From Acidobacteria bacterium UBA2990 (lineage in GTDB: Bacteria; Acidobacteriota; Vicinamibacteria; Vicinamibacterales; UBA8438), in assembly GCA_002347025.1 (NCBI GenBank), contig DEAE01000023.1, positions 174,254-238,253 of the forward strand: a stretch of DNA of 64,000 nucleotides, in the 5' to 3' direction. The notes beneath the pieces are model-generated. The model did no database searches. It was not told the DNA's origin and saw nothing but the letters and a program-made list of their open reading frames with translations. The number at the start of each line of letters is the position of its first letter. Positions within the stretch are counted from its first letter, which is position 1. The translations under genes and the position numbers were made by a program. Positions 627-16,790 of this stretch are shown piece by piece.

Positions 627-681
627 ATTCTGGGGAAACTACTCAGGTCAGGCAAGTGAGGCCTTCCTAGTTCACCGGCTT

Positions 682-1596
682 TTAGACAAGCAAGGTCGGT
701 GTGAACGTGACATCGCCAGCGGCAGTGTCATTGGGACTGAGCACGAGCAATCCAGTATCGGTTCGGCCTTGGCTTGCGAGATTGAAGGCGTCAATGCAGT
801 TGGTGGCGGGTTCTGCGCAAAAAAAATCTTGATTCTCTGGTGTGTAAATGACGAGACAAGAGTAAATCGGGTCAGCTGTAACGTCGAGTTGAGCATGCCA
901 CTCGGGCCATTGAATGCGCAGGCGGCCGCCAAAGCTGATGAAGTTGTTGTCGAGGACTGTCACGTTAGGATTCAGGCCGTGAGCAGTGAAATTTAGGTCA
1001 GGAGGTGGAGCTATCAGAGAACCAGGAACCGCTGCTTGGTTCACCCGCCACATACGCTCAACCTCTGTCCACAGCCTAGCCTGTTTGGTGCGGATAAAGT
1101 AGGGGTGAAGCCCAAATCCGACTGGCATAGGTAATGAACTCTCGTTGGTTACCGCGAATCGTAGTCGGAGGTGGGTGTCGGTCAAAGTAAAGGTCTGCTG
1201 GGCTCGGTAGGGCCATGGCCAAGAACCGGTTGGGTGACTATAGTCTATGACGAGAGTGTCTTCTGACCGGGACACAATATTCCAAGGTTGCCGCCAGGCG
1301 TGGCCATGAATAGCGTGTGGCCCAGAACGAAACTCTTGGGATAGCTCGACCTGCTGCCCTCTGAAAGAAAACGTTCCATTTGTGACCCGGTTTGAAAACG
1401 GCACCATTGGAAAGCTTGACGTTGATCCAGGGTCCCGGTTTTCGACCGCTCCGGGAAGTGCCGGTCTTAACCAATCGAAGGTCGCTCCATCATGGGTTGA
1501 CGAGAAGCGCGTAATAGAGCCACCGGCTGCCGGAGATACCGCGAGTGTAGATCTGGCTGTCCTGAGCTCGATAGGGTCTGAGTGGGCCTGAGGCAT
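682..1596 (-). CDS. Aldose 1-epimerase (galactose mutarotase-like) family protein
   Basis: 304-aa ORF. Blocks FPMVPFSNR, HAIHGHAW and GFGLHPYF resemble aldose-1-epimerase fold signatures. Convergent with the P460 gene, 55 nt apart. Confidence 0.65.
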   Translation of the reverse strand: MPQAHSDPIELRTARSTLAVSPAAGGSITRFSSTHDGATFDWLRPALPGAVENRDPGSTSSFPMVPFSNRVTNGTFSFRGQQVELSQEFRSGPHAIHGHAWRQPWNIVSRSEDTLVIDYSHPTGSWPWPYRAQQTFTLTDTHLRLRFAVTNESSLPMPVGFGLHPYFIRTKQARLWTEVERMWRVNQAAVPGSLIAPPPDLNFTAHGLNPNVTVLDNNFISFGGRLRIQWPEWHAQLDVTADPIYSCLVIYTPENQDFFCAEPATNCIDAFNLASQGRTDTGLLVLSPNDTAAGDVTFTPTLLV

Positions 1597-1809
1597 CCGA
1601 CAAACTCCTAATTGTTGAAGTGATAACTTAGGGTGGGTCTGAATGTGTTCCCTGGTCTGACGAGACGGTGATGATATTCCAGTGCACTCAAACTGTTAGA
1701 CAGTGGTTGGGTTGACCTCTATTTCGAGCCTTCTTCTGACGGCGGAGGGCCCCTGAGAGGGCGTGCTTCCAGTGGCTCAACTCAGGGACCCGATCTTAGA
1801 CACGGTCAC

Positions 1810-2772
1810 TCAATCCATGTGATGAGTTGCAAGAAATGCACGAATGGTGTCATAGATTCGCAGGTTATCTGCTGCGCTGAATCCACCATGTCCTCCACCT
1901 GCAATTGTCATCAGTTCGTTTGGTACGCCCGCTGCCTCCAATGCGGCGTGAAGCCGAACGGCATGGTCGTGGGGCACGATGGAGTCCGCGTCTCCATGGA
2001 TGGTTAAGATGGGGGGCAGGTCTGACCGCACGTAGGTGAGCGGCGAGACGCGCTCGGCTACCACGCCTCGATCGAGGCTGCTTCCCAACCAGGCCTCGGT
2101 AAAGTTGCCTGAGGTCCCAGGTGGACCATGCATCAACCCTACAACATCAGTAATCCCGTACCAGTTGATGATTGCCGCAACTTTCAGTTCTTCGGTAGAG
2201 GTATTGCCAGTGGACCAAGATCGTCGCCGGTCTCCAGGACACTGCCGGTCCAGTCCTGCAGATGCCGTGACCATGCCAGTGGTGAGCGAAAGGTGTCCGC
2301 CAGCCGAATTCCCAGAGACTACGATCCGGTTAACGTCGAAGTTATATTGCTCGGCGTTACGGTAGACCCAGCGGAGAGCGCAGCGGCAATCTTCGACGGC
2401 GGCTGGCGCATGGGCTACGTCGGCCATTCTGTATTCAACATTGACGACAGACCATCCCATTTCAAGATAGGGAAGGATGCTGAGGGCAGAGCTTTCCTTG
2501 CTCCCGTTGGTCCAGCCTCCTCCATGGATGTACACGAGGGTCGGCTTAGTATCATTACCGCCTCGAGCTTGGTAGACGTCAAGCTTTAGGTCGAGGCCAC
2601 CCGCTCTGAGATACGTGATGTTGGGCACTAGGCGGTAACCGGTAGCTACTTGGACAAATCTGGTTGCGCTGTCAGACGTTTGTGCGGCAGTGACTCCTGG
2701 AGTGGCCAGACTCAAAAGGGTAGCCACAGCAACGCCGGTGGTGTAGGTTCGTCTTATTTGCATCGCGTTCAC
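1810..2772 (-). CDS. Alpha/beta-hydrolase esterase/lipase (HGGG type), exported
   Basis: 320-aa ORF (GTG 2772 or ATG 2763). Signal-like N-terminus ending TAAQ. Oxyanion motif IHGGGW, nucleophile elbow GNSAGG (GxSxG), and a C-terminal HGDADSIVP block with a downstream His. Confidence 0.75.
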   Translation of the reverse strand: MNAMQIRRTYTTGVAVATLLSLATPGVTAAQTSDSATRFVQVATGYRLVPNITYLRAGGLDLKLDVYQARGGNDTKPTLVYIHGGGWTNGSKESSALSILPYLEMGWSVVNVEYRMADVAHAPAAVEDCRCALRWVYRNAEQYNFDVNRIVVSGNSAGGHLSLTTGMVTASAGLDRQCPGDRRRSWSTGNTSTEELKVAAIINWYGITDVVGLMHGPPGTSGNFTEAWLGSSLDRGVVAERVSPLTYVRSDLPPILTIHGDADSIVPHDHAVRLHAALEAAGVPNELMTIAGGGHGGFSAADNLRIYDTIRAFLATHHMD

Positions 2773-2823
2773 CTCTGCTCGGGGGTGTGATGCCCCAAGC
2801 TTATCCTGTGTTCTGATGGGTTC

Positions 2824-3321
2824 TTACTGAATTTGGTTGGCAGCCGCGTCGATGCCGGCTTGAGCGCAAATGGCATCGTTGGCTCCTGTGTCTCCGCTGA
2901 CTCCAATCCCTCCTAGATGCTGGCCGGCTGGAGTAAGGATTGGCAATCCCCCCTCAAAAAAATTCAACCCCGGAACAAAAGCAGCAGCTCCTGGTCCGTT
3001 GCCGAAGGCCATTTCACCCCACTGCTGGGTTGATCGAGGACTGGTGGCAGATGTACGGGCCTTAGCCATTGCCACATCACGAGACAAGAGTTGAGCGTCG
3101 TCCATTCGGTGGTAGGCCTTCAGGTTTCCATGGTTGTCCATGATGGCAATATGCATGAGCCAGCCCTCAGCAGCGGCTTTAGAAAGGCATCCATGAACCA
3201 TGGTCATCGCCGCAGAGGAACTGAGGATTGGTCGGGTTTCTATCTGGGCCGAAGCTGAAGTGGATAAGCTTAACGCTAAAGCAAAGAAGCAAATAGTGGC
3301 GAGGTGAGCAGGCAAACGCAT
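2824..3321 (-). CDS. GlcG/HbpS-like (DUF336) haem-binding family protein, exported
   Basis: 165-aa ORF with signal peptide (ALALSLSTSASAQ). The pattern GGLPI...GGIGVSG...NDAICA is typical of the GlcG/DUF336 family. Confidence 0.65.
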   Translation of the reverse strand: MRLPAHLATICFFALALSLSTSASAQIETRPILSSSAAMTMVHGCLSKAAAEGWLMHIAIMDNHGNLKAYHRMDDAQLLSRDVAMAKARTSATSPRSTQQWGEMAFGNGPGAAAFVPGLNFFEGGLPILTPAGQHLGGIGVSGDTGANDAICAQAGIDAAANQIQ

Positions 3322-3488
3322 AAGGTTAGGACCTCCAAAAGATGTGGTTTAGATAAAACAAGGTGTCGAATGGTAGCCTCGACACCACATGAGGTCAGTA
3401 TACTCGGGTCTGGCGGTAGGTACAAACAAACTCAGGCAACGACTGTAAGACCCAAGGAATGCCAGGGTTGGAATGCCCAAAGCTAGAG

Positions 3489-4445
3489 ATGACTCAGTCT
3501 ATGAATGTTGTCTTTCACTACGAGGCCGGGCCGGGCCTTGAAGCCCAATTGACACGTCTTGAAGCTAAGGGCTTGAAGGTATCGGTGTGCCCGGAGGCTG
3601 ACCACACCCGTTTTGGGGAATTGATGGTAGAAGCGGAGGTTCTGTGGCACCTGCTCGAGCCACTCACTGCGAAGATGATAGCAGCCGCTCCAAAACTACG
3701 CTTGATTCAAAAGATTGGCGTCGGAGTGAATACCATTGATCTTGAGGCGGCCAAGCATCGAGGTATCCCAGTGTGTAATATGCCCGGTACGAACAGTCAG
3801 GCTGTAGCTGAGATGACCTTATTGTTAATGTTGGCGACATTGCGGCGCCTTACTCAGCTCGATGGCGCAACGAGGTCAGGAAAGGGTTGGGCCTTACCCG
3901 CGGCCTGGCAGGATCACTACGGAGAGCTGGCAGGTCGAACGGTAGGTTTGATTGGGTATGGTGCTGTGCCATCTCGACTAGCACCGGTGCTGAAGGCTAT
4001 GGGAGCATCTGTGATCTACGCAAGCCGGACGGCGAAGTCCCAAGCGGTAGGGGAGCGCCGGTCATTGGAGGAATTACTGACAGAAAGCGATCTTGTCTCC
4101 CTGCATGTTCCTCTGACTGCAGGTACGGAAAAGCTTATTAACGCCAAGACCCTTGGCATGATGAAGACTGGAGCGATCATCATCAATTCAGCCAGGGGGG
4201 GTCTTATTGATGAGAAGGCTCTGTGCCATGCGCTCACAGTGGGCCGGGTCGGTGCTGCGGGCCTAGATGTTTTTCCTAAGGAACCGGTGCCAGGGAGTAG
4301 TCCTTTGTTTCAGTTTGAAAATGTTGTTTTAGCTCCCCATGTGGCTTGGTTGACGAACGAGACGATGGAGAGGAGTATCGGTCTAGCTGTGGAGAATTGC
4401 CGTCGTCTGGTTTCTGGAGGTCCACTCTTGCACCAAGTGGTTTAG
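3489..4445 (+). CDS. D-isomer-specific 2-hydroxyacid dehydrogenase, NAD-binding
   Basis: ORF track gives 3459..4445. I prefer ATG 3489 (MTQSMNVVF). Contains GxGxxG (GLIGYGAVPS), ARGGLIDE and the catalytic His block PHVAW. Confidence 0.8.
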   Translation: MTQSMNVVFHYEAGPGLEAQLTRLEAKGLKVSVCPEADHTRFGELMVEAEVLWHLLEPLTAKMIAAAPKLRLIQKIGVGVNTIDLEAAKHRGIPVCNMPGTNSQAVAEMTLLLMLATLRRLTQLDGATRSGKGWALPAAWQDHYGELAGRTVGLIGYGAVPSRLAPVLKAMGASVIYASRTAKSQAVGERRSLEELLTESDLVSLHVPLTAGTEKLINAKTLGMMKTGAIIINSARGGLIDEKALCHALTVGRVGAAGLDVFPKEPVPGSSPLFQFENVVLAPHVAWLTNETMERSIGLAVENCRRLVSGGPLLHQVV

Positions 4446-4493
4446 GAGCAGGAACTCTGAAATGGCGCGGCGAACCTGCTAAGGAGACAACTG

Positions 4494-5981
4494 TTGTCTG
4501 CAACTAACGTGATAGCGCAACAATTGGGTAACGGTGACTTACTACGTGATAAGTGTTTCATCGGTGGAAAATGGCGACCTTCTCGTAGCGGCAAGATGTT
4601 TCGTGTGGATAATCCGGCGACTGGGGATCAGGTAGGAGAGGTCCCGGACTGTGGTCCAGAAGATGTTCAGGAAGCGATTGAAGTAGCGGGCCGGGCCTTT
4701 CGCGAGTGGCGGGAGCGACCGGCCACAGATCGTGCGGAAGTGCTGCGTACCTGGGCTCGCCTGATGCATGAATGCCAGGGCGATCTTGCCAGATTGATGA
4801 CCCTAGAACAGGGAAAGCCTCTTCAGGAAGCGATGGGAGAGGTGAGCTATGCAGCTCAATTTATCGAGTGGTTCGCCGAGGAAGGTAAACGAGCCTATGG
4901 TGACGTCATTCCAGCGCCGGTGCGTGGTCAACACATCGTTGTGTTGCGGCAGCCGATCGGTGTTACGGCAGCGATCACGCCCTGGAATTTCCCAGCTGCA
5001 ATGATCACGAGGAAGGCGGGTGCAGCGATCGCCTGTGGTTGTCCGATGATTGTTAAGCCAGCTGAGGCGACACCGCTTACGGCCCTAGCCCTTGCCCGAC
5101 TTGGGGAACTCGCCGGACTGCCGGAAGGGGTACTTAGTGTCGTGACGGCACTGAAGCCGGAGCCTATTGGGCGGGCACTTACCGATAGTCCAGTTGTCCG
5201 AGCTCTAAGCTTTACCGGATCCACGGAGGTTGGGCGAAAGTTGATGGCTCAATGTGCCACACACCTGGCAAAAGTATCCTTAGAGCTTGGTGGAAACGCT
5301 CCCTTTATTGTCTTCGAGGATGCGGACCTTGATGCGGCAGTGACTGGTGCGATGGCATCGAAATTTCGAAACACGGGACAGACTTGTGTTTGTGTTAACC
5401 GTTTCTTGGTGCAGGAGAAGGTCCATGATGCCTTTGTCGAACAGTTGCGCGAAGCCATGGCGGTGTTGACAGTGGGGAACGGGTTGGACGAAGGAGTGCA
5501 GCAGGCGGCCCTTATAGATCGTAACGCGCTTATGAAGGTGCAAGCACATGTGTCGGATGCATTGGCCGGTGGAGCGACCGTGGAACTTGGCGGTAAGGTG
5601 CACGAACTCGGTGGGACCTATTTCCAGCCAACGTTACTTACGGGAGTGAAGCCCAGCATGCAGTGTGTCAGGGAAGAAACTTTTGGTCCAGTGTCGGCGG
5701 TTATGAAGTTTGCTACTGAGGCTGAGGCGATACGTATTGCGAACGATAGCGAATACGGACTGGCCGCCTATTTCTATAGTCGTGATCTTCATAGGGTGTG
5801 GCGCGTGGCCGAACAACTCGAGACTGGAATTGTCGGAGTGAACGAGGGCATCATCTCGACTCCTGTGGCTCCCTTTGGTGGGGTTAAGGCTTCCGGAATC
5901 GGGCGAGAAGGTTCGCGGTATGGTCTTGATGAGTATCTGGAGCTCAAATACTTGTGCATGGGAGGGGCTCAAGGTGGTTAG
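4494..5981 (+). CDS. gabD: NAD(P)+-dependent succinate-semialdehyde dehydrogenase / aldehyde dehydrogenase
   Basis: 495-aa ORF. TTG start at 4494 with AGGAG at 4482-4486. ALDH blocks ITPWNFP, ELGGNAP (catalytic Glu) and GQTCVCVNR (catalytic Cys). The N-terminal FIGGKW...NPATG is typical of GabD-type enzymes. Confidence 0.8.
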   Translation: MSATNVIAQQLGNGDLLRDKCFIGGKWRPSRSGKMFRVDNPATGDQVGEVPDCGPEDVQEAIEVAGRAFREWRERPATDRAEVLRTWARLMHECQGDLARLMTLEQGKPLQEAMGEVSYAAQFIEWFAEEGKRAYGDVIPAPVRGQHIVVLRQPIGVTAAITPWNFPAAMITRKAGAAIACGCPMIVKPAEATPLTALALARLGELAGLPEGVLSVVTALKPEPIGRALTDSPVVRALSFTGSTEVGRKLMAQCATHLAKVSLELGGNAPFIVFEDADLDAAVTGAMASKFRNTGQTCVCVNRFLVQEKVHDAFVEQLREAMAVLTVGNGLDEGVQQAALIDRNALMKVQAHVSDALAGGATVELGGKVHELGGTYFQPTLLTGVKPSMQCVREETFGPVSAVMKFATEAEAIRIANDSEYGLAAYFYSRDLHRVWRVAEQLETGIVGVNEGIISTPVAPFGGVKASGIGREGSRYGLDEYLELKYLCMGGAQGG

Positions 5982-6060
5982 GAGGCTATAGCGTGTTTCA
6001 ACTAGGTGGGGTGGCAGGCTTGGCCAGTGAGTGGGTATTGACGTCAGGTAGAACCAAAAG

Positions 6061-6351
6061 ATGATCGGTGCTGGTGAAATAGTAATTGTCGCGCTCATAG
6101 TTGTCCTGATTGTTATGGCAGGGCGTCGGGGTAATCGACCTACAGGGGAACCAGTTATCGTGGTGGGTTCTCCAAAAAAAGGTCTGCCCCAATCGGTGGT
6201 GACCGGTGGTGGCGCTGTATTGGCCGCGTTGGGTGTGGCCATTACCGCTGAGTTACAGGAATGGCCACCATACATGGGAGCGTTAGCGGCTGGGGTTGCA
6301 GCGGGGCTCGTTGCAACTTGGTTGGCTAGTCGTAATTCTGAGGGTCGCTAA
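6061..6351 (+). CDS. Hypothetical small membrane protein
   Basis: 96-aa ORF in the 380-nt gap between gabD and the RNA methyltransferase. Three hydrophobic stretches (IVIVALIVVLIVMA, GAVLAALGVAITA, LAAGVAAGLVATWLA). No family recognised and the RBS is weak. Confidence 0.35.
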   Translation: MIGAGEIVIVALIVVLIVMAGRRGNRPTGEPVIVVGSPKKGLPQSVVTGGGAVLAALGVAITAELQEWPPYMGALAAGVAAGLVATWLASRNSEGR

Positions 6352-6361
6352 GGGTTGTCGT

Positions 6362-7183
6362 TTAGCCAGATTTTGATGTGGCTTGTGACACGCTGTACAG
6401 GGCAATCCCTACCGTTGTGGCCACATTTAGGGAGTCGATGTCTGGAGCGATCGGGATGTGGACGAGTCGATTGACAAGGTCCGCTGCGGCGTCGCTGAGG
6501 CCGGTACCTTCAGTGCCGAGTATGAGGGCTATCCGGGGGGGAAGGGCCTTAATTAAGGCGCCGAGGCGCTGAGATCCGGAATCAGGTGTTAGGGCTACAG
6601 TAGTGAAGCCGAGTTCTTGGAGTCTTATTAGGCCGCCAGGCCAATCGTGTATCAGTGCATAGGGAATGCGGAGGGTCGCCCCGAGGGAGGTTCTAATCGC
6701 TTTGCGGTAAAGCGGATCCGAGCAGTGTGGGCTAAGCAAGATACATTCGGCCCCAAAGGCTGCTGCGTTCCGAAAAATGCTACCTATGTTGTCTGGATTC
6801 GCGACTTGCTCAAGGACTACCACAAGGCCAGCTGAACGAAGCAGACCAAGCTCCCTGTCGGTTGTCTCATGGGGTCGCTGACCAAGAGCAAGGCAGCCTC
6901 GATGGACATGGAAACCCAGTAGGTTTTGTAGGAGTTGTGGTGAGGCGATATAGATGGGGAACTCATCTAGGCGGTCCTGCAGAAGGTCAGAGAGGCTGTC
7001 GAAGGCCGCTCGGGTCGCTAGAACTGACCGCGTTTGGAGGGTCTGGTGGGTTAGTAGGGTTCTCACCACCAGTCGGCTTTCCGCAACGAATATCCCACGC
7101 TGACGGAGCAAAACTGGGTCCGGAACAGTGTGATAGTCGCCCAATCGTGGGTCCTGAGGATCGTTGACGGGGATAACTGGCAT
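6362..7183 (-). CDS. SpoU/TrmH family RNA 2'-O-methyltransferase
   Basis: ORF track gives 6362..7249. ATG 7183 (MPVIPVND) removes the overlap with the divergent aminotransferase. SpoU blocks NPDNIGSIFRNAAAFG, LILGTEGTGLS and IPI..DIDSLNVA. Confidence 0.8.
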   Translation of the reverse strand: MPVIPVNDPQDPRLGDYHTVPDPVLLRQRGIFVAESRLVVRTLLTHQTLQTRSVLATRAAFDSLSDLLQDRLDEFPIYIASPQLLQNLLGFHVHRGCLALGQRPHETTDRELGLLRSAGLVVVLEQVANPDNIGSIFRNAAAFGAECILLSPHCSDPLYRKAIRTSLGATLRIPYALIHDWPGGLIRLQELGFTTVALTPDSGSQRLGALIKALPPRIALILGTEGTGLSDAAADLVNRLVHIPIAPDIDSLNVATTVGIALYSVSQATSKSG

Positions 7184-7225
7184 TGTGAAACTTGTTATTG
7201 TTTCAGACTGGATAGGATACCTCTG

Positions 7226-8392
7226 ATGGCTGTCTCCTGGTCGACACATTTAGACACGGTTAAGCCGTTTTTGGCGATGGAGGTGATGGAACGTGGCATG
7301 GCGATGTCTCGTGCTGGGGCAGAGGTTGTGCAACTGGGGGTCGGCGAACCTGGGTTTCCACCTCCGCCGGAGGTCGTCCGTGCCGTTACGTCTGCCCTAG
7401 AACAAGGCCACACCCACTATACAGACAGTAGGGGGCTTTATGAGCTGCGTGAGGCGATTTCGAAGGATTGTCTGCATCGCAGAGGAGTTCATGTTAGCCC
7501 AGACCAGATTGTTGTTACCAACGGGTCGTCTCCAGCGCTGTTCTTGGCGATCAATTTGTTGGTGGACCCAGGTGACGAGATTATCATCCTGACACCCCAT
7601 TATCCCTGCTACCCAAATCTTGTTGCGGTCTGTGGAGGAGTCCCGGTCTTTGTGCCGACTTCCCCTGGCGACGGATATCTGGCCGATGTGGCAGGGGTAA
7701 AACGGGCGGTTACGAACCGAACAAAAGGGATTTTAATTGCTTCGCCAGCAAATCCTACCGGGGCTGTGCAGCCACCTGAAGTAATGGAGGCCCTGGTCCA
7801 GCTCGGCGTTCCGGTGCTGGCTGATGAAGTCTATGATGGCCTACTTTATGATCAAGCCGTGAATACCTCTCCATTGGCTTTTTCAGAGGAATGTTTTGTT
7901 TTCGATGGGTTTTCGAAACGGTATGCCATGACCGGTTTTCGACTGGGGTATGTCATCGCCCCGAGTACCGCCATTCGGCGATTAGTCTCCCTCCAACAGA
8001 ATTTGTTTATCTCGGCTGGTCACTTTGTTCAAACAGCGGCATTGGCTGCTCTGGTGCATGGTAGGGCTCATCTGGAGATGATGGTTGGTGAGTACGCCCA
8101 GCGGAGGGCGCGGCTGGTTGCAGGGGTTCGGAACCTGGGGCTCTCAGTACCGGTCAAGCCGTTAGGAGCTTTCTATGTACTGGCCGACGCGAGGCATTTG
8201 GGTCAAGACTCTCTGGCGTTGGCGTTCGAGATCCTCGAGCGGGCCCATGTTGCACTAGGGCCAGGTCGAGACTTTGGGGAAATTGCTGAAGGCTTCTTGA
8301 GGTTTTCTTTTGCTGCACCGGTAGATGCTATAGACCGCGCAATGGAGCAGTTACATAAGGCATGGCCATCGATCAGCCGAATGTCTAAATAG
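7226..8392 (+). CDS. Class I/II (fold-type I) PLP-dependent aminotransferase
   Basis: ORF track gives 7130..8392. I prefer ATG 7226 (MAVSW). Blocks NGSSPAL, ASPANPTG, PLP-lysine block FSKRYAMTGFRLGY, and C-terminal LRFSFA. Confidence 0.8.
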   Translation: MAVSWSTHLDTVKPFLAMEVMERGMAMSRAGAEVVQLGVGEPGFPPPPEVVRAVTSALEQGHTHYTDSRGLYELREAISKDCLHRRGVHVSPDQIVVTNGSSPALFLAINLLVDPGDEIIILTPHYPCYPNLVAVCGGVPVFVPTSPGDGYLADVAGVKRAVTNRTKGILIASPANPTGAVQPPEVMEALVQLGVPVLADEVYDGLLYDQAVNTSPLAFSEECFVFDGFSKRYAMTGFRLGYVIAPSTAIRRLVSLQQNLFISAGHFVQTAALAALVHGRAHLEMMVGEYAQRRARLVAGVRNLGLSVPVKPLGAFYVLADARHLGQDSLALAFEILERAHVALGPGRDFGEIAEGFLRFSFAAPVDAIDRAMEQLHKAWPSISRMSK

Positions 8393-8414
8393 GTGGTGAT
8401 CACCTTGGGAGGGC

Positions 8415-9074
8415 ATGGACATGGTGCAGACATTGAATTTAGGGCGTCGAATCGAACTGCACTCGATGGACGCACATTGTCAAGGTGTGTCGTTAGCACT
8501 GTATAGGTGGGAGGTGGAAGGCCGACCGAGGTTTCTGGTCCACACTTATAGCTCGGTGCAAGGGGCCAGGGAGCGTGTCGAGTTTATCCAGGAAGCCCTC
8601 CAGGTCACTCTTGGAATGCAAACCACCGATGCTCCGGCAGAGGCAGAAAGGATGAGCCCGCAAAGTTGGCTTCAATTTCCCTGTCGTTCGGATCATCTGA
8701 GGGCTTTGAAGCGCTCTTTTCTCGATGTGTGCAAGTTGGAGACGGGTGCCCCCTTGGTGGCTAAGCCTTTAACCGTATTTGATAAGAAGGCTGACGGTGA
8801 GATAGAAGCATTGAGCCGTGGCTCCGGTCTCTATGAGATCCGAACTGTAGGCGGGGTTGTGTCAAGGAGGACAACAGTAATCGCTCAGGGTTTTGCGAAG
8901 CTCTGTGAGATGAAGATCATTGAGGATGATCACCAAGTGGTTTTTCCCTGTAAGACGTCCCACGACGCGATGGTTGGGATGTTGATGTTTCGGGCACAGA
9001 ATGTTCGAGGAACGGTGAAAGAAGAGGAGATGTCGGCAACCCGTGGCGTCCTGTCTGCCCCGAGCCAGCAGTGA
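8415..9074 (+). CDS. Hypothetical protein, internally duplicated, FPCxxxH motif x2 (unrecognised family)
   Basis: 219-aa ORF (ATG 8415 or 8421; GGGAGGG at 8406-8412). It starts 22 nt after the aminotransferase stop and ends 10 nt before the next gene. The two halves align by eye: LYRWEVEG...QFPCRSDH versus LYEIRTVGG...VFPCKTSH. Confidence 0.6.
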   Translation: MDMVQTLNLGRRIELHSMDAHCQGVSLALYRWEVEGRPRFLVHTYSSVQGARERVEFIQEALQVTLGMQTTDAPAEAERMSPQSWLQFPCRSDHLRALKRSFLDVCKLETGAPLVAKPLTVFDKKADGEIEALSRGSGLYEIRTVGGVVSRRTTVIAQGFAKLCEMKIIEDDHQVVFPCKTSHDAMVGMLMFRAQNVRGTVKEEEMSATRGVLSAPSQQ

Positions 9075-9084
9075 CGGGTGCTCT

Positions 9085-10146
9085 ATGGGAGTCCAGGAAA
9101 CTATGGAAAAGTCAATGACTAGCCGTGAGCGCGTTTTGGCTGCGCTAAGCCGTGAGCCTGTTGATCGAACGCCCTGTTGTAATCCGACCTCCTTGGCTAC
9201 TGTCGAGTTGATGGACCTTGTGGATGCGAGGTTTCCCGATGCGAATCGTAAAGGGGAGCAAATGGCCCGCCTTGCTGCGACAGGTTATACGGAACTGGGT
9301 TTCGACTCTGTCATGCCGGTGTTTTCGATTATCCAGGAGTCATCGGCGCTGGGTTGCCTGATGCAATGGGAGGGTAAGGACAACTGGCCGACGGTCAAGA
9401 TGAGCCAGCCGATTTGGAGGGAGCCAGACGATATCAGTATTCCCTCGAATTTTTTGACCCACCCAGATACCCAATGTGTCCTGGAGGCGATCAGGATACT
9501 GAAGAAGGAATTTGGAGAAGAGGTGGCGGTCATCGGTAAAACGATGGGACCGTGGTCGCTGGGATACCACTGCTTCGGGGTTGAGCGTTTCCTGCTGATG
9601 TCCCATGACGATCCCGGTAAGACGATGGTCTGCCTCGACAAGATGAAAGAATCGACAATTCTATTCGGTCAGGCTCAGATTGAAGCGGGGGCAGATGCTT
9701 TGACGCTACCAGATCATGCGACAGGAGATTTGGTGAGTGGTGAGTACTATGAGCGGTTTCTGCGGGAAATGCACACCGAATTTGCCGCAATGCTTGCGGT
9801 TCCGCTCATTCTCCATATTTGTGGCAGAACCGTAGATCGAATGGATGGAATTGCAAGGACAGGAATGGCGGCGTTTCATTTCGACTCTAAGAACCGGCCC
9901 CAAGAGTCGATGGAAGTGGTGGATTCGAGAATTGCTCTCGTGGGGAACATCAATAATCCAGAAACTCTGTTTGCTCGGAGTCCTGAAGAAGTCCGTGTTG
10001 AGGTGCGAGAAAACCTGGACGCAGGTGTCCAGCTGATTGCCCCGGAATGTGCGATTCCTTTGCAGACCTCTATCGAGAATTTGAAGGCGATTCCTGAGTC
10101 AGTCCGTGAATGGCATCGAGAGAAAGCAGTTTCTGTCGGATCATGA
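9085..10146 (+). CDS. URO-D superfamily corrinoid methyltransferase (MtaA/MtbA/CmuA-like)
   Basis: ORF track gives 9043..10146. The start is probably among ATG 9085, 9103 and 9115. MtaA-like N-terminus (SRERVLAALSREPVDRTP). It lacks the HemE MRQAGR block. Zinc-ligand pattern HxC (ILHICG) plus a downstream Cys (APECAIP). Confidence 0.75.
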   Translation: MGVQETMEKSMTSRERVLAALSREPVDRTPCCNPTSLATVELMDLVDARFPDANRKGEQMARLAATGYTELGFDSVMPVFSIIQESSALGCLMQWEGKDNWPTVKMSQPIWREPDDISIPSNFLTHPDTQCVLEAIRILKKEFGEEVAVIGKTMGPWSLGYHCFGVERFLLMSHDDPGKTMVCLDKMKESTILFGQAQIEAGADALTLPDHATGDLVSGEYYERFLREMHTEFAAMLAVPLILHICGRTVDRMDGIARTGMAAFHFDSKNRPQESMEVVDSRIALVGNINNPETLFARSPEEVRVEVRENLDAGVQLIAPECAIPLQTSIENLKAIPESVREWHREKAVSVGS

Positions 10147-11021
10147 GTAAGTTCCTCGATCGTGTTAAAGGCGGAGAACTCTTGGTTTCGGATGGAGCCA
10201 CAGGTACCTATCTGCAAGAACATGGGCTGCCTCCAGGGGGGTGTCCTGAGGAGTTTAATTGGAGCCACCCGAATGTTGTTCAAGGGATGGCCGCCGAGTA
10301 TTTTGCGGCCGGGTCTGATTTAGTGCTCACCAATTCATTTGGTGGAAGCCGCTATCGACTAAAAGAATACGGCTTAGGCGACAGGGTGGTTGAGTTGAAC
10401 CGGCTGGCTGCAGACCATGCTCGAACTGTGGCGCCCGTTGAGGGCTTTGTGCTTGGTTCGATTGGTCCGACCGGCGTTTTGCTGGAGCCAAATGGACCAG
10501 CTACCGAAGAGGAGATGTTTAGTGCATTTTGTGAACAGGTGAAGGGATTGAGCGAGGGAGGAGTGGATGGATTTTGCATCGAAACGATGTTTGATCTGGC
10601 CGAGATGAATCTTGCTATTAGGGCGGTCAAAGACCGGACTTCTCTGCCAGTTGTAGCGACTATGGTCTTCGATAAGGGTCCTAAAGGTTACTTCACGATG
10701 ATGGGGCTTCGGCCGGGTCGGGTGGCTGAGGAACTAGCCGGGGTAGGTGCAGATGTTATTGGTTCAAACTGCGGCTTAGCGATTGGACACATGGTAGAGA
10801 TTGTGACCGCGATGCGAGCGGCGAGCGTGCTGCCGATTCTCACCCATGTGAACGCTGGTATTCCAGAGATCAAAAAAACGGCTATTGTGTACCCAGATAG
10901 TCCTGAATTCATGGCTGAAGAGATGGTGAATATCATTGAAGCAGGTGCCAACATTGTCGGTGGTTGCTGTGGAACCTCGCCTGAATATATTCGGGCGTTT
11001 GCAAGGCGTTACAAATCCTGA
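10143..11021 (+). CDS. Homocysteine S-methyltransferase domain protein (MetH Hcy-module / BHMT / MmuM-like)
   Basis: ORF track gives 10110..11021. ATG 10143 overlaps the upstream stop (ATGA 10143-10146). Blocks LVSDGATGT and LTNSFGG. Zinc cysteines GSNCG and GGCCGTSPEYI. Confidence 0.8.
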   Translation: MSKFLDRVKGGELLVSDGATGTYLQEHGLPPGGCPEEFNWSHPNVVQGMAAEYFAAGSDLVLTNSFGGSRYRLKEYGLGDRVVELNRLAADHARTVAPVEGFVLGSIGPTGVLLEPNGPATEEEMFSAFCEQVKGLSEGGVDGFCIETMFDLAEMNLAIRAVKDRTSLPVVATMVFDKGPKGYFTMMGLRPGRVAEELAGVGADVIGSNCGLAIGHMVEIVTAMRAASVLPILTHVNAGIPEIKKTAIVYPDSPEFMAEEMVNIIEAGANIVGGCCGTSPEYIRAFARRYKS

Positions 11022-11035
11022 GGATTCGGTGCCCT

Positions 11036-11797
11036 ATGGCAGAGTTAGTTGACCTTCAGAATAAGTTCCTCCGGGATGAGCTCGGGGAATACGTTGAAGA
11101 AGAGGCCGAGCGCCAGAGGATGGTCGATCTCTATGCGGAGACAAAGCTTTCAATGCAGAACATTGCCGCAGCGATTATCGACGGTCGCCATCATGATGTG
11201 GATCGCCTCACCCGCGAGGCGATCGACGATGACGTCCAAGCTCTTGAGGTGATGGATGACGGTCTGATCGCAGGTATGGCCCTAGTGGGAATAAAATTCA
11301 GGGACAATTTCATCTTTGTGCCAGAAGTGCTTGCATGTGCGCGGGCGATGAAGGCGGGAATGGCGCACATCGAGCCCATTTTGTCTGCGTCTGGGATTGA
11401 TCCCATTGGCAAGGTCATTATGGGTACGGTGAAGGGGGACCTTCACGATATTGGTAAGAACTTGTGCATCATGATGTTACGAGGAGCCGGCTTTAAAGTT
11501 GTCGACCTGGGTGTCGACACCTCTCCAGATGACTTTCTCGAAGCTGTTGAAGAGCACGGCGCGAATCTTGTGGGTATGTCGGCATTGCTCACAACCACTA
11601 TGCCTAATATGGGGCGAACTATCGAGGCCTTCATTGACGCAGACCTCAGAGATGATGTGAAGGTTATGGTGGGAGGAGCTCCGGTTACCCCTGAGTTCGC
11701 TGACGATATGGGGGCCGACGCCTACGGCGCCGATGCGGTGGAGTGTGTAGAAATAGCTAAACGACTGACTGAGGAGAGTGCCTCGGCACACCAGTGA
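11036..11797 (+). CDS. Corrinoid (cobalamin-binding) methyl-carrier protein
   Basis: 253-aa ORF. A helical cap region is followed by a Rossmann domain with DxHxxG (GDLHDIGKN), SALLTTT and MVGGAP blocks, as in MtaC/MtbC and the MetH B12 domain. Confidence 0.85.
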   Translation: MAELVDLQNKFLRDELGEYVEEEAERQRMVDLYAETKLSMQNIAAAIIDGRHHDVDRLTREAIDDDVQALEVMDDGLIAGMALVGIKFRDNFIFVPEVLACARAMKAGMAHIEPILSASGIDPIGKVIMGTVKGDLHDIGKNLCIMMLRGAGFKVVDLGVDTSPDDFLEAVEEHGANLVGMSALLTTTMPNMGRTIEAFIDADLRDDVKVMVGGAPVTPEFADDMGADAYGADAVECVEIAKRLTEESASAHQ

Positions 11798-13737
11798 GTG
11801 ACAGAAAAGCTAGCGGTGATCGTAATTTCATAGACCGGGCAGGCTACGAGAAGAGTCTCCGCCGACTCGGTGACATATTCCAGGGGATTACGAGACACGC
11901 CAAAAAACAGGCCCTACAACGCTGCCCTTATAAAGATAGACACGACTGCTGCACAGCGCAATTTGCTTGCGCTTATAAGCGCGTGGCATCTGTAGTATCA
12001 GACCTTCCGAATTGTGTTAGCGATGACCAACTCGATTATCGGACGGCGTGGGAGACTGATGTGGGTGATGTTCAAGCGATGAAAGGCAAGTTCCTCTCAT
12101 CATCGGGTCAACCTGGCAATGTGGAGTTCAATGGTCGATTGTGTGCTTTGAGAGTTGGGAAGACGATTTTCGATCACGCAGACGAGTTGAGGGTCAAAGT
12201 GCCGACCTCCTGCGGACGTGTGGGTACCTGTCACGAATGTGTTGTCCAGATTAGAAAAGGGGACGAGGCATTGAGGGCTAGGTCTGATGCTGAAGCATTC
12301 CTTCAGGGTGATTATCGTCTGGCCTGTCAAGCTGTGGTTGAGCAGGAAAATCAGGAGATAGCCTTTGATCTGTTGCGTCGTGAACCTAAGATTCTGCTCT
12401 CTCAAGAGTCACGGGCCGTAGATGTGGACCCAATGGTGCACCGGCAAGGTGACAAGGTTTATTACGGTAGCGAGGAGCTTGACCGCTATCGCGGCCACCT
12501 GTACGGCGTCGCTCTGGATCTCGGTACCACAACCGTGGTGCTTGAATTGGTGAACCTGGAGACCGGTCAATCAGTTCACGTCGAATCGTTCGAGAACCCC
12601 CAGCGGTTCGGTGGTAGTGACATTATGACCCGCATAAGTTACGACGGTGGTGAGCACAAAGGGGAACTGCACACGGCCATCGTTAATACGTTCAACACGG
12701 TTGTAAGGGAGTTCTGCGCGAAGCTGGGAGTGAGCCGTCACGAGATCTACGAGATTCTCGTGGTAGGGAATACGACTATGCGCGATCTTTTTTTCGGACT
12801 GGATGTTCAGTCGATTGGTCAAAAGCCATACAGGTCAAATGTGGAGGAGGAACACCTCCGTGGTGTCAGAAAGTCCACGGGTCTTCGAGAGTCAGCCAGA
12901 CAACTGAAATTAATGGCAAACAGGAATGCTGTTGTCTGTGGAGTGCCTCTCATAGGAAGCCACGTGGGTGGGGATATCGTAGCGGACCTCGTAGCAATTG
13001 ATATGGTGAGCCGACGAGAACCCGTCATGCTTGTCGATGTGGGTACGAACACCGAGGTGGTGCTTGGCTATGCTGGCCGTCTTATGGCGGCCTCGTGTCC
13101 AGCAGGTCCAGCGTTTGAGGGTGGTTTGGTACGTTTTGGAATGCCAGGTTGTGAAGGTGCTGTCGAATCAGTCCGATACAGGGATGGCAAGTTTTGCTGC
13201 GAGACTATAGGTGAAGGTGAACCCGAAGGGATCTGTGGGTCGGGTTTCATTGATCTCCTTGCTGAACTACGCCGTGCGAATTTAATGACGCCAAAAGGGG
13301 TGTTCCCGGATAAAGCAGTGGAAGTTCAAGTGGTTCAGGAACGCGGAATCACTTTGTCACGACAAGACGTCAGTGAACTGGCTCAGGCGAAGGCCGCTAG
13401 TTTCTGTGGTCAGGCGATTTTGATGCGCCAGTTCGGTGTGAGCCCGGACGAAATCAGCCAGATGTTTCTGTCTGGAGGGTTCGTAAATTATGTTGAGGTC
13501 GCCTCCGCTGTTGACATTGGCTTCCTGGCACCGGTAAACGAGGATCGCGTGATCAAAGTTGGTAATGCGGCCGCTCAGGGGGCCCGTGAAATGTTGCTTT
13601 CAAGAAAAAAACGTTCCGAGATAGCTGAACTGATCTCGAGGGTAGAGCATGTGGAACTCGAAACTACCGAGGATTTTTTTGAGATGTTTGTGGAAGGCTG
13701 TCAATTTAAACCGATGAACTGCCAGTCTTTGTGGTGA
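11794..13737 (+). CDS. Reductive activase of corrinoid proteins (RACo/RamA-like: [2Fe-2S] ferredoxin + ASKHA/DUF4445 ATPase)
   Basis: 647-aa ORF. GTG 11794 overlaps the upstream stop (GTGA). Ferredoxin module SCGRVGTCHEC...LACQ. ASKHA-type blocks ALDLGTTTV, VDVGTNTE and GICGSG. About 95 extra Cys-rich N-terminal residues. An alternative start is ATG 12079. Confidence 0.75.
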   Translation: MSDRKASGDRNFIDRAGYEKSLRRLGDIFQGITRHAKKQALQRCPYKDRHDCCTAQFACAYKRVASVVSDLPNCVSDDQLDYRTAWETDVGDVQAMKGKFLSSSGQPGNVEFNGRLCALRVGKTIFDHADELRVKVPTSCGRVGTCHECVVQIRKGDEALRARSDAEAFLQGDYRLACQAVVEQENQEIAFDLLRREPKILLSQESRAVDVDPMVHRQGDKVYYGSEELDRYRGHLYGVALDLGTTTVVLELVNLETGQSVHVESFENPQRFGGSDIMTRISYDGGEHKGELHTAIVNTFNTVVREFCAKLGVSRHEIYEILVVGNTTMRDLFFGLDVQSIGQKPYRSNVEEEHLRGVRKSTGLRESARQLKLMANRNAVVCGVPLIGSHVGGDIVADLVAIDMVSRREPVMLVDVGTNTEVVLGYAGRLMAASCPAGPAFEGGLVRFGMPGCEGAVESVRYRDGKFCCETIGEGEPEGICGSGFIDLLAELRRANLMTPKGVFPDKAVEVQVVQERGITLSRQDVSELAQAKAASFCGQAILMRQFGVSPDEISQMFLSGGFVNYVEVASAVDIGFLAPVNEDRVIKVGNAAAQGAREMLLSRKKRSEIAELISRVEHVELETTEDFFEMFVEGCQFKPMNCQSLW

Positions 13738-13760
13738 CCCCAACGGTAGTCGCCAGTCTT

Positions 13761-14546
13761 CTAGCCCTGGAAATGTGGCTGACGCTTTTCCAGAAAGGCG
13801 GCAATGCCTTCCTGGCCGTCAGAGTCGGCCGCTATCTCGGCAATGGCGGATGCTTCGAGTGCCATCTGACTTTCAAGGGTTTCGTGTGAACTCGCGAGAA
13901 GCAGCCGTTTTGTAGCGGCATAAGCGTTGGTCGGTCCAGCCCCGAGCTTTGCCGCAAGGTTTAGTGATTCGGTAATGAGGTCGTCGTCATGGATTACACG
14001 GTTCACCAGACCTAACTGGTGCGCTTCTTCGGCAGTCAATACAGGATTAAGGAGCATCATCTCGAGTGCTTTGCGCCTCCCCAGTAGTCTGGGAAGAAAG
14101 TAAGTCGAACTTCCATCTGGCACCAAACCGGCTTTGGTGTAGGCCAGGGTGAATTTAGCCGACTTGGCGGCTAACACTAGGTCGCAAGCGCAGGCGAGAG
14201 AAAATCCGGCTCCGGCTGCTGCTCCCTGTACCGATGCAATCACAGGTGCACGCATGTGGGCGAGGTGTGAAATCGCCGCGTGGAGGGTGGCCGTCAATTC
14301 TTTCAATACAGCTGGCAGGGTTTCTCCGGCCTTCGCGAAGTGGCCGAGGTCGCCACCAGCGCTGAATAGCCGGCCTTCCGCATCGAGTAGAACGGCTCTC
14401 ACGCTGCTATCGACGTCGCAGGTGATGATGGTCTTAAGTAGCTCTTGAGCCATGGTGAGGTTAATGGCGTTAGCATCGTCTGGACGGCTGAGGGTAATCC
14501 GAGCAACGCCGTCATTGAGCCGAAACTTGAGAGTATTGAGGTTCAT
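13761..14546 (-). CDS. Enoyl-CoA hydratase/isomerase (crotonase) family protein
   Basis: ORF track gives 13761..14678. ATG 14546 (MNLNTLKF) is preferred because the upstream gene ends at 14594. Blocks FSAGGDL, GAAAGAGFSLACACD and EGIAAFLEKR. Confidence 0.85.
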   Translation of the reverse strand: MNLNTLKFRLNDGVARITLSRPDDANAINLTMAQELLKTIITCDVDSSVRAVLLDAEGRLFSAGGDLGHFAKAGETLPAVLKELTATLHAAISHLAHMRAPVIASVQGAAAGAGFSLACACDLVLAAKSAKFTLAYTKAGLVPDGSSTYFLPRLLGRRKALEMMLLNPVLTAEEAHQLGLVNRVIHDDDLITESLNLAAKLGAGPTNAYAATKRLLLASSHETLESQMALEASAIAEIAADSDGQEGIAAFLEKRQPHFQG

Positions 14547-14593
14547 AGCCGATCCTAGCAGGGATGTGAGAAGTTCGTTGCCAGACCCAGGCG

Positions 14594-15952
14594 TTACTGT
14601 TGGGCAATTCGGTAGAGCGTGGAAACAGTGCGGACAATCAGGCTCCCGTGTGCGATAGCTGGAGTTGCGAGGGTCCACTCGTTTAGAGAGTTCGTGCCGA
14701 GAAGCTCGAATTCTGGACCGGCTTTAACAACATACGTATCGCCATCTTCACTGATGTTAAAGATCTTGCCATTGTAGGCCCATGGTGATGCAGTGAATAG
14801 CGAACCTCCTGGGGATACGCGAACTCGAGAGTAGACCTCTTCACCGCTATGAGCGTCATGGCAGATCAAAATACCCCTATCCAACCAGGTGTAGTGGTAG
14901 TTCCCGTAGACCAAGGCTGAGGGGTTGTAAGAACCAAGTTGTGGATGAGACCAGACGACGAAGTCGTTGCTGGTGGTTCCTGGCGATAAGGTGATGTCTC
15001 CACCCGCACCAGGGCGGATGGCGTAAACGGGCCGATTCGAGTCGGCAGTGTAACCGGAATTTATATAGAGCAGACCATGTTGCGCGAATGGGGTCGCCAC
15101 ATGGATGGACGACATGCCATCAAGCCCCCATAGGGACCGACCGTTAAGGTCGTAGGCTCTAACTCCCCCTCTCCCAGTCGTGACCACTTCAGTGCGAAGC
15201 TCATTTTGCCAAATGAATGGTGTAGACCAGTTTGAAGCCTCGTCCCGTTCCACTCGCCAGAGTTCCCTTCCGGTTTTGGTATCGTGGGCAGCTAAGAAGG
15301 ATTGTTCAAGGTTGTCATTAACAAGAAATAACTGGTTTTCGTAGATGGCCGGGGAGGACGCTGTGCCCCAGTCTTCTCGCATGGGATAGAGCTCGACGGG
15401 TTGCTCCCAGAGCTGAGAGCCTTCGAAATTAAAGGCGTAGAGACCCGCGTAGCCGAGGTAGACGTAGACGTTTTCACCATCGGTTACCGGGGTTTCAGAT
15501 GCGTAACTGTTTTTTTCGTGTTTTGAACCAGGCATGGCAGTGTGCAGGGTGCGTTGCCAGCGAATTTGTCCTGTGGAAAAGTCGATATCGTAGAGAACCC
15601 AACGAAGGGGCGACGACGGGGTCTCGAGGTTGGACCCTGTCATGGGGCCGTCAAACGACCTCGATTGATACTGATCCAGAGGCTTGAGTGGTGTTTCGAC
15701 TCCACTTGTATTGATTGCTGATGTAACGAAGATGTGGTCGCCTGAGACGATTGGGGAGCTCCAGGAACGACCAGGTATATTGAGTTGCCACACTATGTTA
15801 TCTGTTGGTCCCCAGCGATCGGGTAGGGTGGAGTGGTCTGCGGCAGTGCCGCCCTCTAGACCGCGGAATTGAGGCCACTCGGTTTGGGCATGGAGACTGT
15901 CAATCGTTGCCCATATGACGACGACCGAAAGCACGACTCGATGAAATTGCAT
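14594..15952 (-). CDS. PQQ-like/BamB-like beta-propeller repeat protein, exported
   Basis: ORF track gives 14594..15982. ATG 15952 is preceded by AGGAG. Signal peptide, then the WPQFRG start typical of this repeat family, then repeated propeller blades. It lacks the quinoprotein-dehydrogenase VHHxxWDYD block. Confidence 0.65.
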   Translation of the reverse strand: MQFHRVVLSVVVIWATIDSLHAQTEWPQFRGLEGGTAADHSTLPDRWGPTDNIVWQLNIPGRSWSSPIVSGDHIFVTSAINTSGVETPLKPLDQYQSRSFDGPMTGSNLETPSSPLRWVLYDIDFSTGQIRWQRTLHTAMPGSKHEKNSYASETPVTDGENVYVYLGYAGLYAFNFEGSQLWEQPVELYPMREDWGTASSPAIYENQLFLVNDNLEQSFLAAHDTKTGRELWRVERDEASNWSTPFIWQNELRTEVVTTGRGGVRAYDLNGRSLWGLDGMSSIHVATPFAQHGLLYINSGYTADSNRPVYAIRPGAGGDITLSPGTTSNDFVVWSHPQLGSYNPSALVYGNYHYTWLDRGILICHDAHSGEEVYSRVRVSPGGSLFTASPWAYNGKIFNISEDGDTYVVKAGPEFELLGTNSLNEWTLATPAIAHGSLIVRTVSTLYRIAQQ

Positions 15953-16019
15953 CAATTTCTCCTGGTTGATGGCCGCTTCCATCAGGATATATTACGCTGT
16001 CGAAGGAGTGTGAGAAGAG

Positions 16020-16790
16020 ATGACCCATTGGATTAGATTTGAACAGGATGGACAAACTGGATTTGGGGTTCTGACTAACCAGACGATTGCAGTCTACACG
16101 GGAGATATGTTTGGTGCCTCGACGCCCACCGGAGACACCCTTGACCTCGGAGGTGTGACCCTGTTGCCTCCAACAGTCGCCAGCAAGATGGTGGCGTTGT
16201 GGAACAATTCCCGCGCGATGGCGGCCAAGATGGATCAAGTGGAGCCGTCGGAACCCCTGTATTTCATCAAGGCGAATGGTTCATACCTTGGTTCAGGAGG
16301 GGTGATCCGAAAGCCCCACAATTACGACGGCAAAGTGGTGTTTGAGGGCGAGCTCGGTATCGTAATTGGTAAGCAGTGTCGGGCCGTTAGTGAGTCTGAG
16401 AGCGGTACGTACATTTTTGGCTACACGTGTGTCAATGACGTCACGGCTGTTGGTATCCTCGGGAAAGATCCATCATTCAAGCAATGGACCCGGGCAAAAA
16501 GCTTCGATACTTTTGGTGTTGTCGGCCCGGTCGTAGTCACAGGCCTCGACCCGACGAACTTGGTTGTCCGGACGGTCCTAAACGGACAGGAACGTCAGAA
16601 CTATCCAACTAGCGATTTGTTTTTCCAACCGGCAACGATCGTGAGTCTAATCTCCCAGGATATGACTTTGTTTCCAGGCGATGTTATCTGCTGTGGTACA
16701 TCAGTAGGTGTTGGATCAATGAAACCAGGTAGCAGCGTCGAAATCATCATAGACAATATCGGAACGCTGCGTAACCAATATCAAGACTAG
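16020..16790 (+). CDS. Fumarylacetoacetate hydrolase (FAH) family protein
   Basis: 256-aa ORF. Blocks YFIKA, FEGELGIVIG, CVNDVTA and LFPGDVI of the FAH / 2-keto-4-pentenoate hydratase fold. Confidence 0.85.
   Translation: MTHWIRFEQDGQTGFGVLTNQTIAVYTGDMFGASTPTGDTLDLGGVTLLPPTVASKMVALWNNSRAMAAKMDQVEPSEPLYFIKANGSYLGSGGVIRKPHNYDGKVVFEGELGIVIGKQCRAVSESESGTYIFGYTCVNDVTAVGILGKDPSFKQWTRAKSFDTFGVVGPVVVTGLDPTNLVVRTVLNGQERQNYPTSDLFFQPATIVSLISQDMTLFPGDVICCGTSVGVGSMKPGSSVEIIIDNIGTLRNQYQD

Follow-up and report, generated by a model that had tools for sequence, protein, structure and literature searches.

The 64,000-nucleotide stretch of DNA considered here (the window) comes from Acidobacteria bacterium UBA2990 (assembly GCA_002347025.1, contig DEAE01000023.1, positions 174,254 to 238,253) and carries an operon for corrinoid-dependent methyl transfer, within which an open reading frame (ORF) at positions 8415..9074 encodes an unnamed protein of 219 amino acids (aa), for which we use the working name X219. 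X219 belongs to a real and narrow protein family whose gene is found, across distant bacterial phyla, directly upstream of one conserved gene for an MtaA-like zinc methyltransferase. We consider it somewhat better than an even chance (about 0.55) that X219 is an obligate, and probably non-catalytic, partner subunit of this specific clade of MtaA-like enzymes, and that the two together form the methyl-donor (methyltransferase I, MT-I) module of the system. An earlier note on this DNA had proposed an accessory or substrate-side subunit of the corrinoid system, and this is still the best reading once it is tied to the MtaA-like enzyme, although nothing indicates that the methyltransferase is X219 itself rather than the MtaA-like protein with its TIM-barrel fold.

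Genomic coupling of X219 to an MtaA-like gene

The distribution of X219 was surveyed with one genome per species, which returned 54 loci from Planctomycetota (Pirellulales, Planctomycetaceae and Phycisphaerae), Poribacteria, Latescibacterota, Spirochaetia, Acidobacteriota, Verrucomicrobiota/Kiritimatiellia and Gaiellales (Actinomycetota), with one further contig assigned to Gammaproteobacteria. In about 50 loci, representing at least eight phyla, X219 lies directly upstream of the MtaA-like gene, whose product is conserved at 65–80% identity. With the single exception of a Phycisphaerae locus discussed below, every locus with enough downstream sequence has an MtaA-like gene next, 71–80% identical to that of the window, either immediately after X219 or, in Phycisphaerae, with a single cupin gene in between. 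The expectation of the earlier note that homologues would sit in corrinoid methyltransferase contexts is thus borne out at practically all loci that were compared.

The coupling holds at two further scales. A distant subfamily of X219, only 27–30% identical to the window protein, is still found directly upstream of an MtaA-like gene whose product is 67–69% identical. Among 401 sampled genomes of the window's own phylum, X219 occurs in 15, and an orthologue of the MtaA-like enzyme (E ≤ 1e-60) occurs in exactly the same 15, adjacent to X219 in each. In Poribacteria, X219 and the MtaA-like gene stand together beside unrelated cell-division and bc1-complex genes, and the genes for the cognate corrinoid protein (70–73% identical) and the reductive activase RACo are paired at another place in the genome. 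The tie of X219 is therefore to the MtaA-like enzyme in particular, and neither to the corrinoid protein nor to the activase.

The MtaA-like enzyme has more than 3000 homologues at E ≤ 1e-50. Its identity reaches 77–81% between Poribacteria, Pirellulaceae, Fuerstiella and others, which suggests strong constraint, horizontal spread of the module, or both. In one Acidobacteriaceae metagenome-assembled genome (MAG; L029:8649-12315) the MtaA-like, corrinoid and RACo genes each appear in several tblastn pieces, reflecting either assembly indels, as the contig has the look of a long-read MAG, or a decaying operon. An in-frame TGA seen in one MtaA-like orthologue proved to be simply the stop codon of that gene. 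The cupin-domain protein that is inserted between the two genes in Phycisphaerae has 261–312 aa (L021:8821-9606, L017:2904-3842 and also L019), and in these cupin-bearing loci an Opp-type ABC transporter is found directly upstream.

A constant pair with a varying acceptor side

While X219 and its neighbour remain constant, the genes around them do not. Operons of the Planctomycetota type, which that of the window resembles most closely in layout and identity, have a homocysteine S-methyltransferase (HcyMT) gene between the MtaA-like gene and that of the corrinoid protein, and in Latescibacterota a distant HcyMT gene follows RACo. The acceptor-side gene of Spirochaetia and of the distant X219 subfamily encodes a pterin-binding methyltransferase. 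A gene resembling methylenetetrahydrofolate reductase (MTHFR) follows RACo in Phycisphaerae (L021), with a Pterin_bind gene after it in L017, and also follows RACo in Moanabacter (L044), and one Latescibacterota locus (L026) has MTHFR, methyltetrahydrofolate:corrinoid methyltransferase and HcyMT genes in a row. As the X219–MtaA-like pair is constant and the acceptor varies, the pair is most simply understood as the donor (MT-I) module. Such an arrangement mirrors the way in which MtgB plugs into MtgCDE (PMC12478193) and the organisation of the split cobalamin-dependent methionine synthase (PMC5764234).

On this basis a three-step scheme can be proposed. In the first step the MtaA-like TIM-barrel enzyme, helped by X219, would move a methyl group from a small donor to the Co(I) of the corrinoid protein. 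The His-x-Cys...Cys zinc ligands kept by the MtaA-like enzyme point to a methyl group bound to a thiol or to oxygen, so that the donor may be a methyl-thioether or a methyl-ether. In the second step the methyl group would pass to homocysteine, in the window and in operons of the Planctomycetota type, or, in other phyla, to tetrahydrofolate by way of the pterin-binding methyltransferase and MTHFR. In the third step RACo would re-reduce cofactor that has become oxidised.

The identity of the donor is not betrayed by the neighbourhood, since no consistent substrate-specific gene was found among 137 flanking ORFs at 30 loci, where only folate-side genes recur. Scattered neighbours of the module include 2-hydroxyacid dehydrogenases, HpcH/HpaI aldolases, GFO/IDH/MocA oxidoreductases, GntR/FCD regulators and one glycerate kinase, the last of these directly after the MtaA-like gene in a Gaiellales MAG (L023:1667-2746). 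The 2-hydroxyacid dehydrogenases (one of which is also present in the window at 3459-4445), the HpcH/HpaI aldolases and class-V aminotransferases lie near the module in several phyla. These neighbours resemble genes of the serine cycle or of hydroxy-acid metabolism, and would fit one-carbon assimilation or the catabolism of hydroxy acids or sugar acids, without naming the substrate.

The presence of separate GntR/FCD regulators in several loci also bears on the idea that X219 is itself the regulator or sensor of the operon, for instance by controlling transcription in response to a bound ligand or by inhibiting the MtaA-like enzyme until substrate is present. The X219 gene opens the conserved module, and the pseudo-dimeric architecture described below would suit a sensor of small ligands. 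We regard a regulatory role as very improbable all the same, as the protein has a neutral isoelectric point (near 7) and no helix-turn-helix or other nucleic-acid-binding signature in the Pfam and NCBIfam scans, which revealed no enzyme family signature either, and its gene is always co-oriented with, and tightly spaced from, that of the enzyme.

X219 defines a family without known relatives

A word-indexed search recovered 360 homologues of X219, all of about 210–220 aa and all either unnamed or labelled 'hypothetical', and an exhaustive profile search of 1.84 billion representative sequences gave 255 clusters at E ≤ 1e-3, whose members are either complete, at about 210 aa, or fragments. No genuine fusion (Rosetta-stone) proteins were found among these representatives, the two long hits being mis-called proteins: in P0207 a frameshift carries the reading from X219 into the adjacent MtaA-like sequence, and in P0173 the match stops at residue 150, with unrelated sequence beyond.

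Neither sequence nor predicted structure links the family to anything that has been characterised, in agreement with the earlier note, which had not recognised the protein. X219 matches no family in Pfam-A or NCBIfam at E ≤ 0.01, including DUF1638 (PF07796), DUF3786, MtaB and MttB/MtgB (PF06253), and the distant member L061 likewise matches none in Pfam (E ≤ 0.01) or NCBIfam (E ≤ 0.001). The family profile finds nothing above noise among the sequences of the Protein Data Bank (PDB; best E 0.36). Foldseek searches of the PDB gave a best E of 0.21 and template modelling (TM) scores of at most 0.23 for the whole model, with a mean predicted local distance difference test (pLDDT) score of 88, and a best E of 0.28 with TM scores of at most 0.41 for a single repeat (pLDDT 92); the whole model also had no significant match in BFVD. 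Foldseek matches to a kinase N-lobe and to GyrA were dismissed as coincidences of topology (TM at most 0.41, E at least 0.2). The predicted fold may therefore be called new in the sense that no solved relative was detected in the PDB and BFVD. We found no publication on the family.

DUF1638, which the earlier note had suggested as a possible relative, deserves separate mention. It is likewise small, of similar size, of unexplained role and genomically tied to a corrinoid methyl-transfer system. The two proteins have no sequence relation, however, and their genomic companions differ: that of X219 is the MtaA-like enzyme, and that of DUF1638 the RamA-like activase of split methionine synthase systems (PMC5764234). 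A relationship was ruled out at the level tested: besides the absence of any match to the family model, an hhalign comparison of the X219 family alignment with one DUF1638 sequence (L066) gave a probability of 0.04% (E 0.86). PF07796 matches nothing in the entire genome from which the window derives, and DUF1638 is present in only one of ten X219-bearing genomes.

Paired motifs and internal duplication

The feature of X219 that first attracts attention is a pair of FPCxxxH motifs, one in each half of the protein. Both motifs, which the earlier note had pointed out, are present. Their conservation is far above chance, and the Cys-His-Cys-His (CHCH) set at positions 90, 94, 179 and 183 is retained in 199 of 212 distinct full-length members (94%). 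Among these sequences C90 and H94 are each conserved at 98%, C179 at 96% and H183 at 95%, with F88 and F177 at 95–96%. Only three intact proteins (P0149, P0262 and P0268) lack the set, and in them both motifs have gone together; the remaining exceptions are truncated or frameshifted gene calls, and none of the 212 members is an intact protein that keeps one FxCxxxH motif without the other. This joint loss in three lineages suggests that all four residues belong to one dispensable site, probably for a structural metal rather than a catalytic centre, and it argues against a catalytic role for the Cys and His residues. To judge from the sequences, the two motifs most likely join into one putative Cys2His2 metal site that would hold a structural zinc. 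In the window protein, the loop ahead of motif 1 carries an insertion of seven residues (AERMSPQ, residues 77–83, window 8643-8663), opposite which about 95% of homologues have a gap.

The same residues raise the possibility of a redox function, as two Cys and two His are the ligand set of Rieske-type clusters. X219 could then be a small iron–sulfur protein with a Rieske- or mitoNEET-like 2Cys–2His [2Fe-2S] centre, supplying electrons for corrinoid activation or protecting Co(I). The CHCH pattern matches that ligand set, RACo requires an electron donor, and an unexplained small protein, DUF1638, accompanies the RamA-like activases of split methionine synthase (PMC5764234) and is missing from most X219-bearing genomes. 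We nevertheless think this improbable. X219 travels with the MtaA-like gene and not with RACo or the corrinoid protein, from which it is separated in Poribacteria; the ligands are gone in three lineages; neither the CxxxH spacing nor the predicted fold matches any known Fe-S fold; and X219 is unrelated to DUF1638.

The internal duplication proposed in the earlier note is real, and ancient, as comparison of the halves as profiles and the repeat pattern of an AlphaFold2 model show. Single-sequence BLASTP finds a match limited to the seven-residue motif (E 0.013), whereas hhalign aligns the profiles of the halves from helix 1 through FxCxxxH with 94.8% probability (E 5e-8), R54 falling opposite R152. 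The alignment of the halves previously made by eye fares less evenly: its pairing of D19/D123, Y30/Y140 and R54/R152 is recovered in a looser alignment, with low confidence for individual columns. The AlphaFold2 model (32 sequences; pLDDT 88.3, predicted TM score 0.83) shows the order beta-beta-beta-alpha-beta-beta-alpha twice, and repeat 1 folded alone keeps its elements unchanged (pLDDT 92). X219 is a pseudo-dimer produced by tandem duplication of a beta3-alpha-beta2-alpha unit.

Two other parts of the protein stand out. Five residues (G10, D19, R54, D123 and R152) are invariant across both subfamilies. At the C-terminus, G211, L213, P216, S217 and Q219 are invariant in the family alignment and Q218 nearly so (≥90%), so that the tail ...RGVLxAPSQQ is almost invariant in the main subfamily; the distant subfamily has a different conserved tail, ...RGQMTTxTLGFS, in which RG is kept. 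The last 20 residues are predicted to be disordered (pLDDT 53–56). Because the tail is invariant in sequence and yet of low pLDDT, as is often the case for peptides that fold onto a partner, it may be a docking element. The D19/D123 and R54/R152 pairs and the tail are accordingly our candidates for the contact or ligand surfaces of X219.

Conserved polar pairs of this kind can also be read as the marks of a small enzyme. X219 might catalyse a separate step of the same pathway, either generating the true methyl donor (a methylated thiol or ether might, for instance, be set free from a precursor) or processing or detoxifying the demethylated product, such as a reactive thiol, at an active site built of the Cys2His2 centre and the Asp, Arg and Tyr residues. 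The pseudo-symmetric D19/D123, R54/R152 and Y30/Y140 pairs together with the Cys and His residues do have the appearance of a site for a ligand or for catalysis, genes for consecutive pathway steps would likewise be expected to co-occur as strictly as X219 and the MtaA-like gene do, and in Phycisphaerae the cupin is a second small protein of metal-binding type, encoded between the two genes. Such a role seems to us unlikely, given that three lineages have lost all four Cys and His residues and kept the rest of the protein, that X219 resembles no enzyme family or fold, that a tail both invariant and disordered is more usual in docking elements, and that the two genes stay adjacent even where the other pathway genes are scattered.

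The operon in the window

The features of the window operon are collected in Table 1. The X219 gene probably starts at ATG 8421, giving a protein of 217 aa, since the homologues and the database gene call (P0002, 217 aa) begin at this second ATG; a Shine–Dalgarno-like run, GGGAGGG, lies 7 nucleotides (nt) ahead of it. Residue numbers given here are those of the longer frame. The MtaA-like ORF can formally open at GTG 9043, overlapping X219 by 32 nt, but its start is probably ATG 9103, as the family models match only from residue 24–26 of the longer ORF and an AGGAA ribosome site precedes 9103. The short gaps described in the earlier note therefore hold on the upstream side, where X219 follows the aminotransferase stop after 22–28 nt, and on the other side the apparent overlap of ORFs is corrected to a gap of 28 nt.

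Table 1. Coordinates of the features discussed, as positions in the window
Feature	Position	Strand	Description
Class I/II aminotransferase	7130..8392	+	PF00155 E 2e-57; directly upstream of X219 and in the same orientation
X219 gene	8415..9074	+	Belongs to an unnamed family of proteins about 210 aa long; ORF and translation, 219 aa
Motif 1	8676..8696	+	FPCRSDH, residues 88–94 (F88, C90, H94); predicted loop after the fifth strand and N-terminus of helix 2, repeat 1
Motif 2	8943..8963	+	FPCKTSH, residues 177–183 (F177, C179, H183); position equivalent to motif 1, in repeat 2
C-terminal tail	9042..9071	+	RGVLSAPSQQ; near-invariant sequence, low-confidence predicted structure; candidate docking peptide
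MtaA/CmuA-family Zn methyltransferase (URO-D fold)	9103..10146	+	PF01208 E 1e-63; TIGR01463 245 bits against a cut-off of 235
Homocysteine S-methyltransferase domain protein (MtgE-like / MetH module 3)	10110..11021	+	PF02574 E 3e-60
Corrinoid (B12-binding) protein, MtgC-like	11036..11797	+	PF02310 and PF02607; NF047996 E 6e-58, under the model's cut-off
RACo/RamA-type ATP-dependent reductive activase with 2Fe-2S ferredoxin domain	11794..13737	+	PF14574, PF17651, PF00111, Fer2

The partner of X219 belongs to the uroporphyrinogen decarboxylase (URO-D) fold family. It scores 245.4 bits against the TIGR01463 cut-off of 235.4 and falls below the cut-offs of the MtaA_Meth and MtbA equivalog models. 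Its best match in the PDB is the MtaA of Methanosarcina mazei (4AY7, E 1e-50), with LHICG and APECA aligned to the zinc ligands (HxC...C). The homocysteine methyltransferase probably serves as the methyl acceptor module, and the Pfam scan found no PF00809 or PF06253 gene in the operon. The same genome encodes a canonical multidomain methionine synthase, MetH (an open frame of 1256 aa with Pterin_bind and B12-binding domains, at about 264.9–266.4 kb of contig C2), so that the operon would be an additional route for methyl harvesting and a second cobalamin-dependent route to methionine; MetE was not found in this genome. No riboswitch or other RNA element was found at positions 1–20000 of the window.

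The aminotransferase upstream, which the earlier note had counted among the co-translated genes, does not hold up as a partner of X219, as its position is not kept in any other locus compared; elsewhere, only L018 has anything comparable, a weak match of 23% identity some 6 kb upstream. In the window, the longest ORF of the aminotransferase shares 120 nt with the 5' end of a SpoU-type RNA methyltransferase gene that runs divergently (7130-7249 versus 6362-7249 on the minus strand), and the aminotransferase start probably lies further downstream, as family models match only from residue 35–65.

Comparison with known methyl-transfer systems

Among bacterial systems with a stand-alone corrinoid protein, two are useful points of reference. 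The three-part split cobalamin-dependent methionine synthase of Phaeobacter inhibens includes a corrinoid protein, a PF02574 methyltransferase and a RamA-like activase (PMC5764234), and in the MtgBCDE system of Ruegeria pomeroyi the substrate-specific methyltransferase MtgB plugs into a shared corrinoid protein (PMC12478193). The window operon shares with them its stand-alone corrinoid protein (PF02310 and PF02607), a PF02574 HcyMT and a RamA/RACo-type activase, and the X219-bearing operons of other phyla share with MtgBCDE a PF00809 pterin methyltransferase. It differs from them in that the donor slot is filled by the MtaA-like URO-D enzyme with X219, not by the PF06253 protein MtgB, and in having no DUF1638. 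X219 itself is without counterpart in either system.

The MtaA-like enzyme can be compared with better-known members of its own family. MtaA is the methylcobalamin:coenzyme M methyltransferase of Methanosarcina (PDB 4AY7), to which the X219 partner is clearly homologous (E 1e-50), down to the zinc ligands. X219 is unrelated to MtaA, MtsA and MtpA alike, and unlike the hosts of these enzymes the bacteria considered here are non-methanogens, in which coenzyme M is not expected. MtsA and MtpA illustrate that an MtaA-type fold can also act on the donor side, with methyl thioethers. To our knowledge none of the three needs a partner resembling X219.

Within the literature searched, the nearest described clusters are the type 1 mlp clusters of Kountz and Balskus, which are mostly found in anaerobic Firmicutes, have two or three different Mlp paralogues and no folate or homocysteine modules, and for which methyl-sulfur or methyl-selenium compounds have been proposed as substrates (PMC10418091). 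Where those clusters have at least two paralogues (Mlp2 and Mlp3), the window and related loci have one URO-D family gene and X219. The main text of that paper describes no X219-like protein, and the words 'hypothetical', 'unknown function' and 'DUF' are absent from it.

Weighing X219 as a partner subunit

Several observations tell against a partner subunit. In one Phycisphaerae MAG (L012) X219 is unlinked from the MtaA-like orthologue, which is 73% identical and lies on another contig. X219 is conserved at 27–57% identity, far below the 65–80% of the MtaA-like enzyme, a contrast that is uncommon for a subunit that fits tightly. The Cys and His residues are missing from three lineages, so that the most eye-catching feature of the protein is non-essential. 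We know of no archaeal MtaA or MtbA, nor of any other URO-D-type corrinoid methyltransferase, that needs an X219-like partner. Lastly, the X219–MtaA-like complex, the binding of metal, the direction of methyl flow and the class of substrate are all deduced, the direction from module swapping only.

A bolder version of the partner hypothesis would make X219 and the MtaA-like enzyme the two subunits of a new cobalamin-dependent demethylase that acts on some abundant methylated compound of the sea, in aerobic or microaerobic bacteria and in sponge symbionts. X219, with a previously unseen fold and a Cys2His2 metal centre, would then bind or activate the substrate, and the methyl group would enter methionine or the folate one-carbon pool. 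Candidate donors would be dimethylsulfide, methanethiol, methylmercaptopropionate or an O-methylated sugar acid. We put this forward as speculation that is more likely wrong than right by a wide measure.

Significance

Corrinoid methyltransferase systems decide which methylated compounds, among them osmolytes, sulfur volatiles, methoxy groups and methyl halides, a microbe can use, and it is the donor-side component that sets the substrate. The donor module described here spans seven named phyla or classes, with many of its bearers deep-sea or sponge-associated and others soil bacteria. If X219 is a required subunit, it would represent a new class of component in the biochemistry of B12-dependent methyl transfer. 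It would also provide a clean marker gene for the pathway in metagenomes, being rarer and more specific than matches to the URO-D family, and it would point to an unassigned oceanic route by which methyl groups are harvested into methionine and folate.

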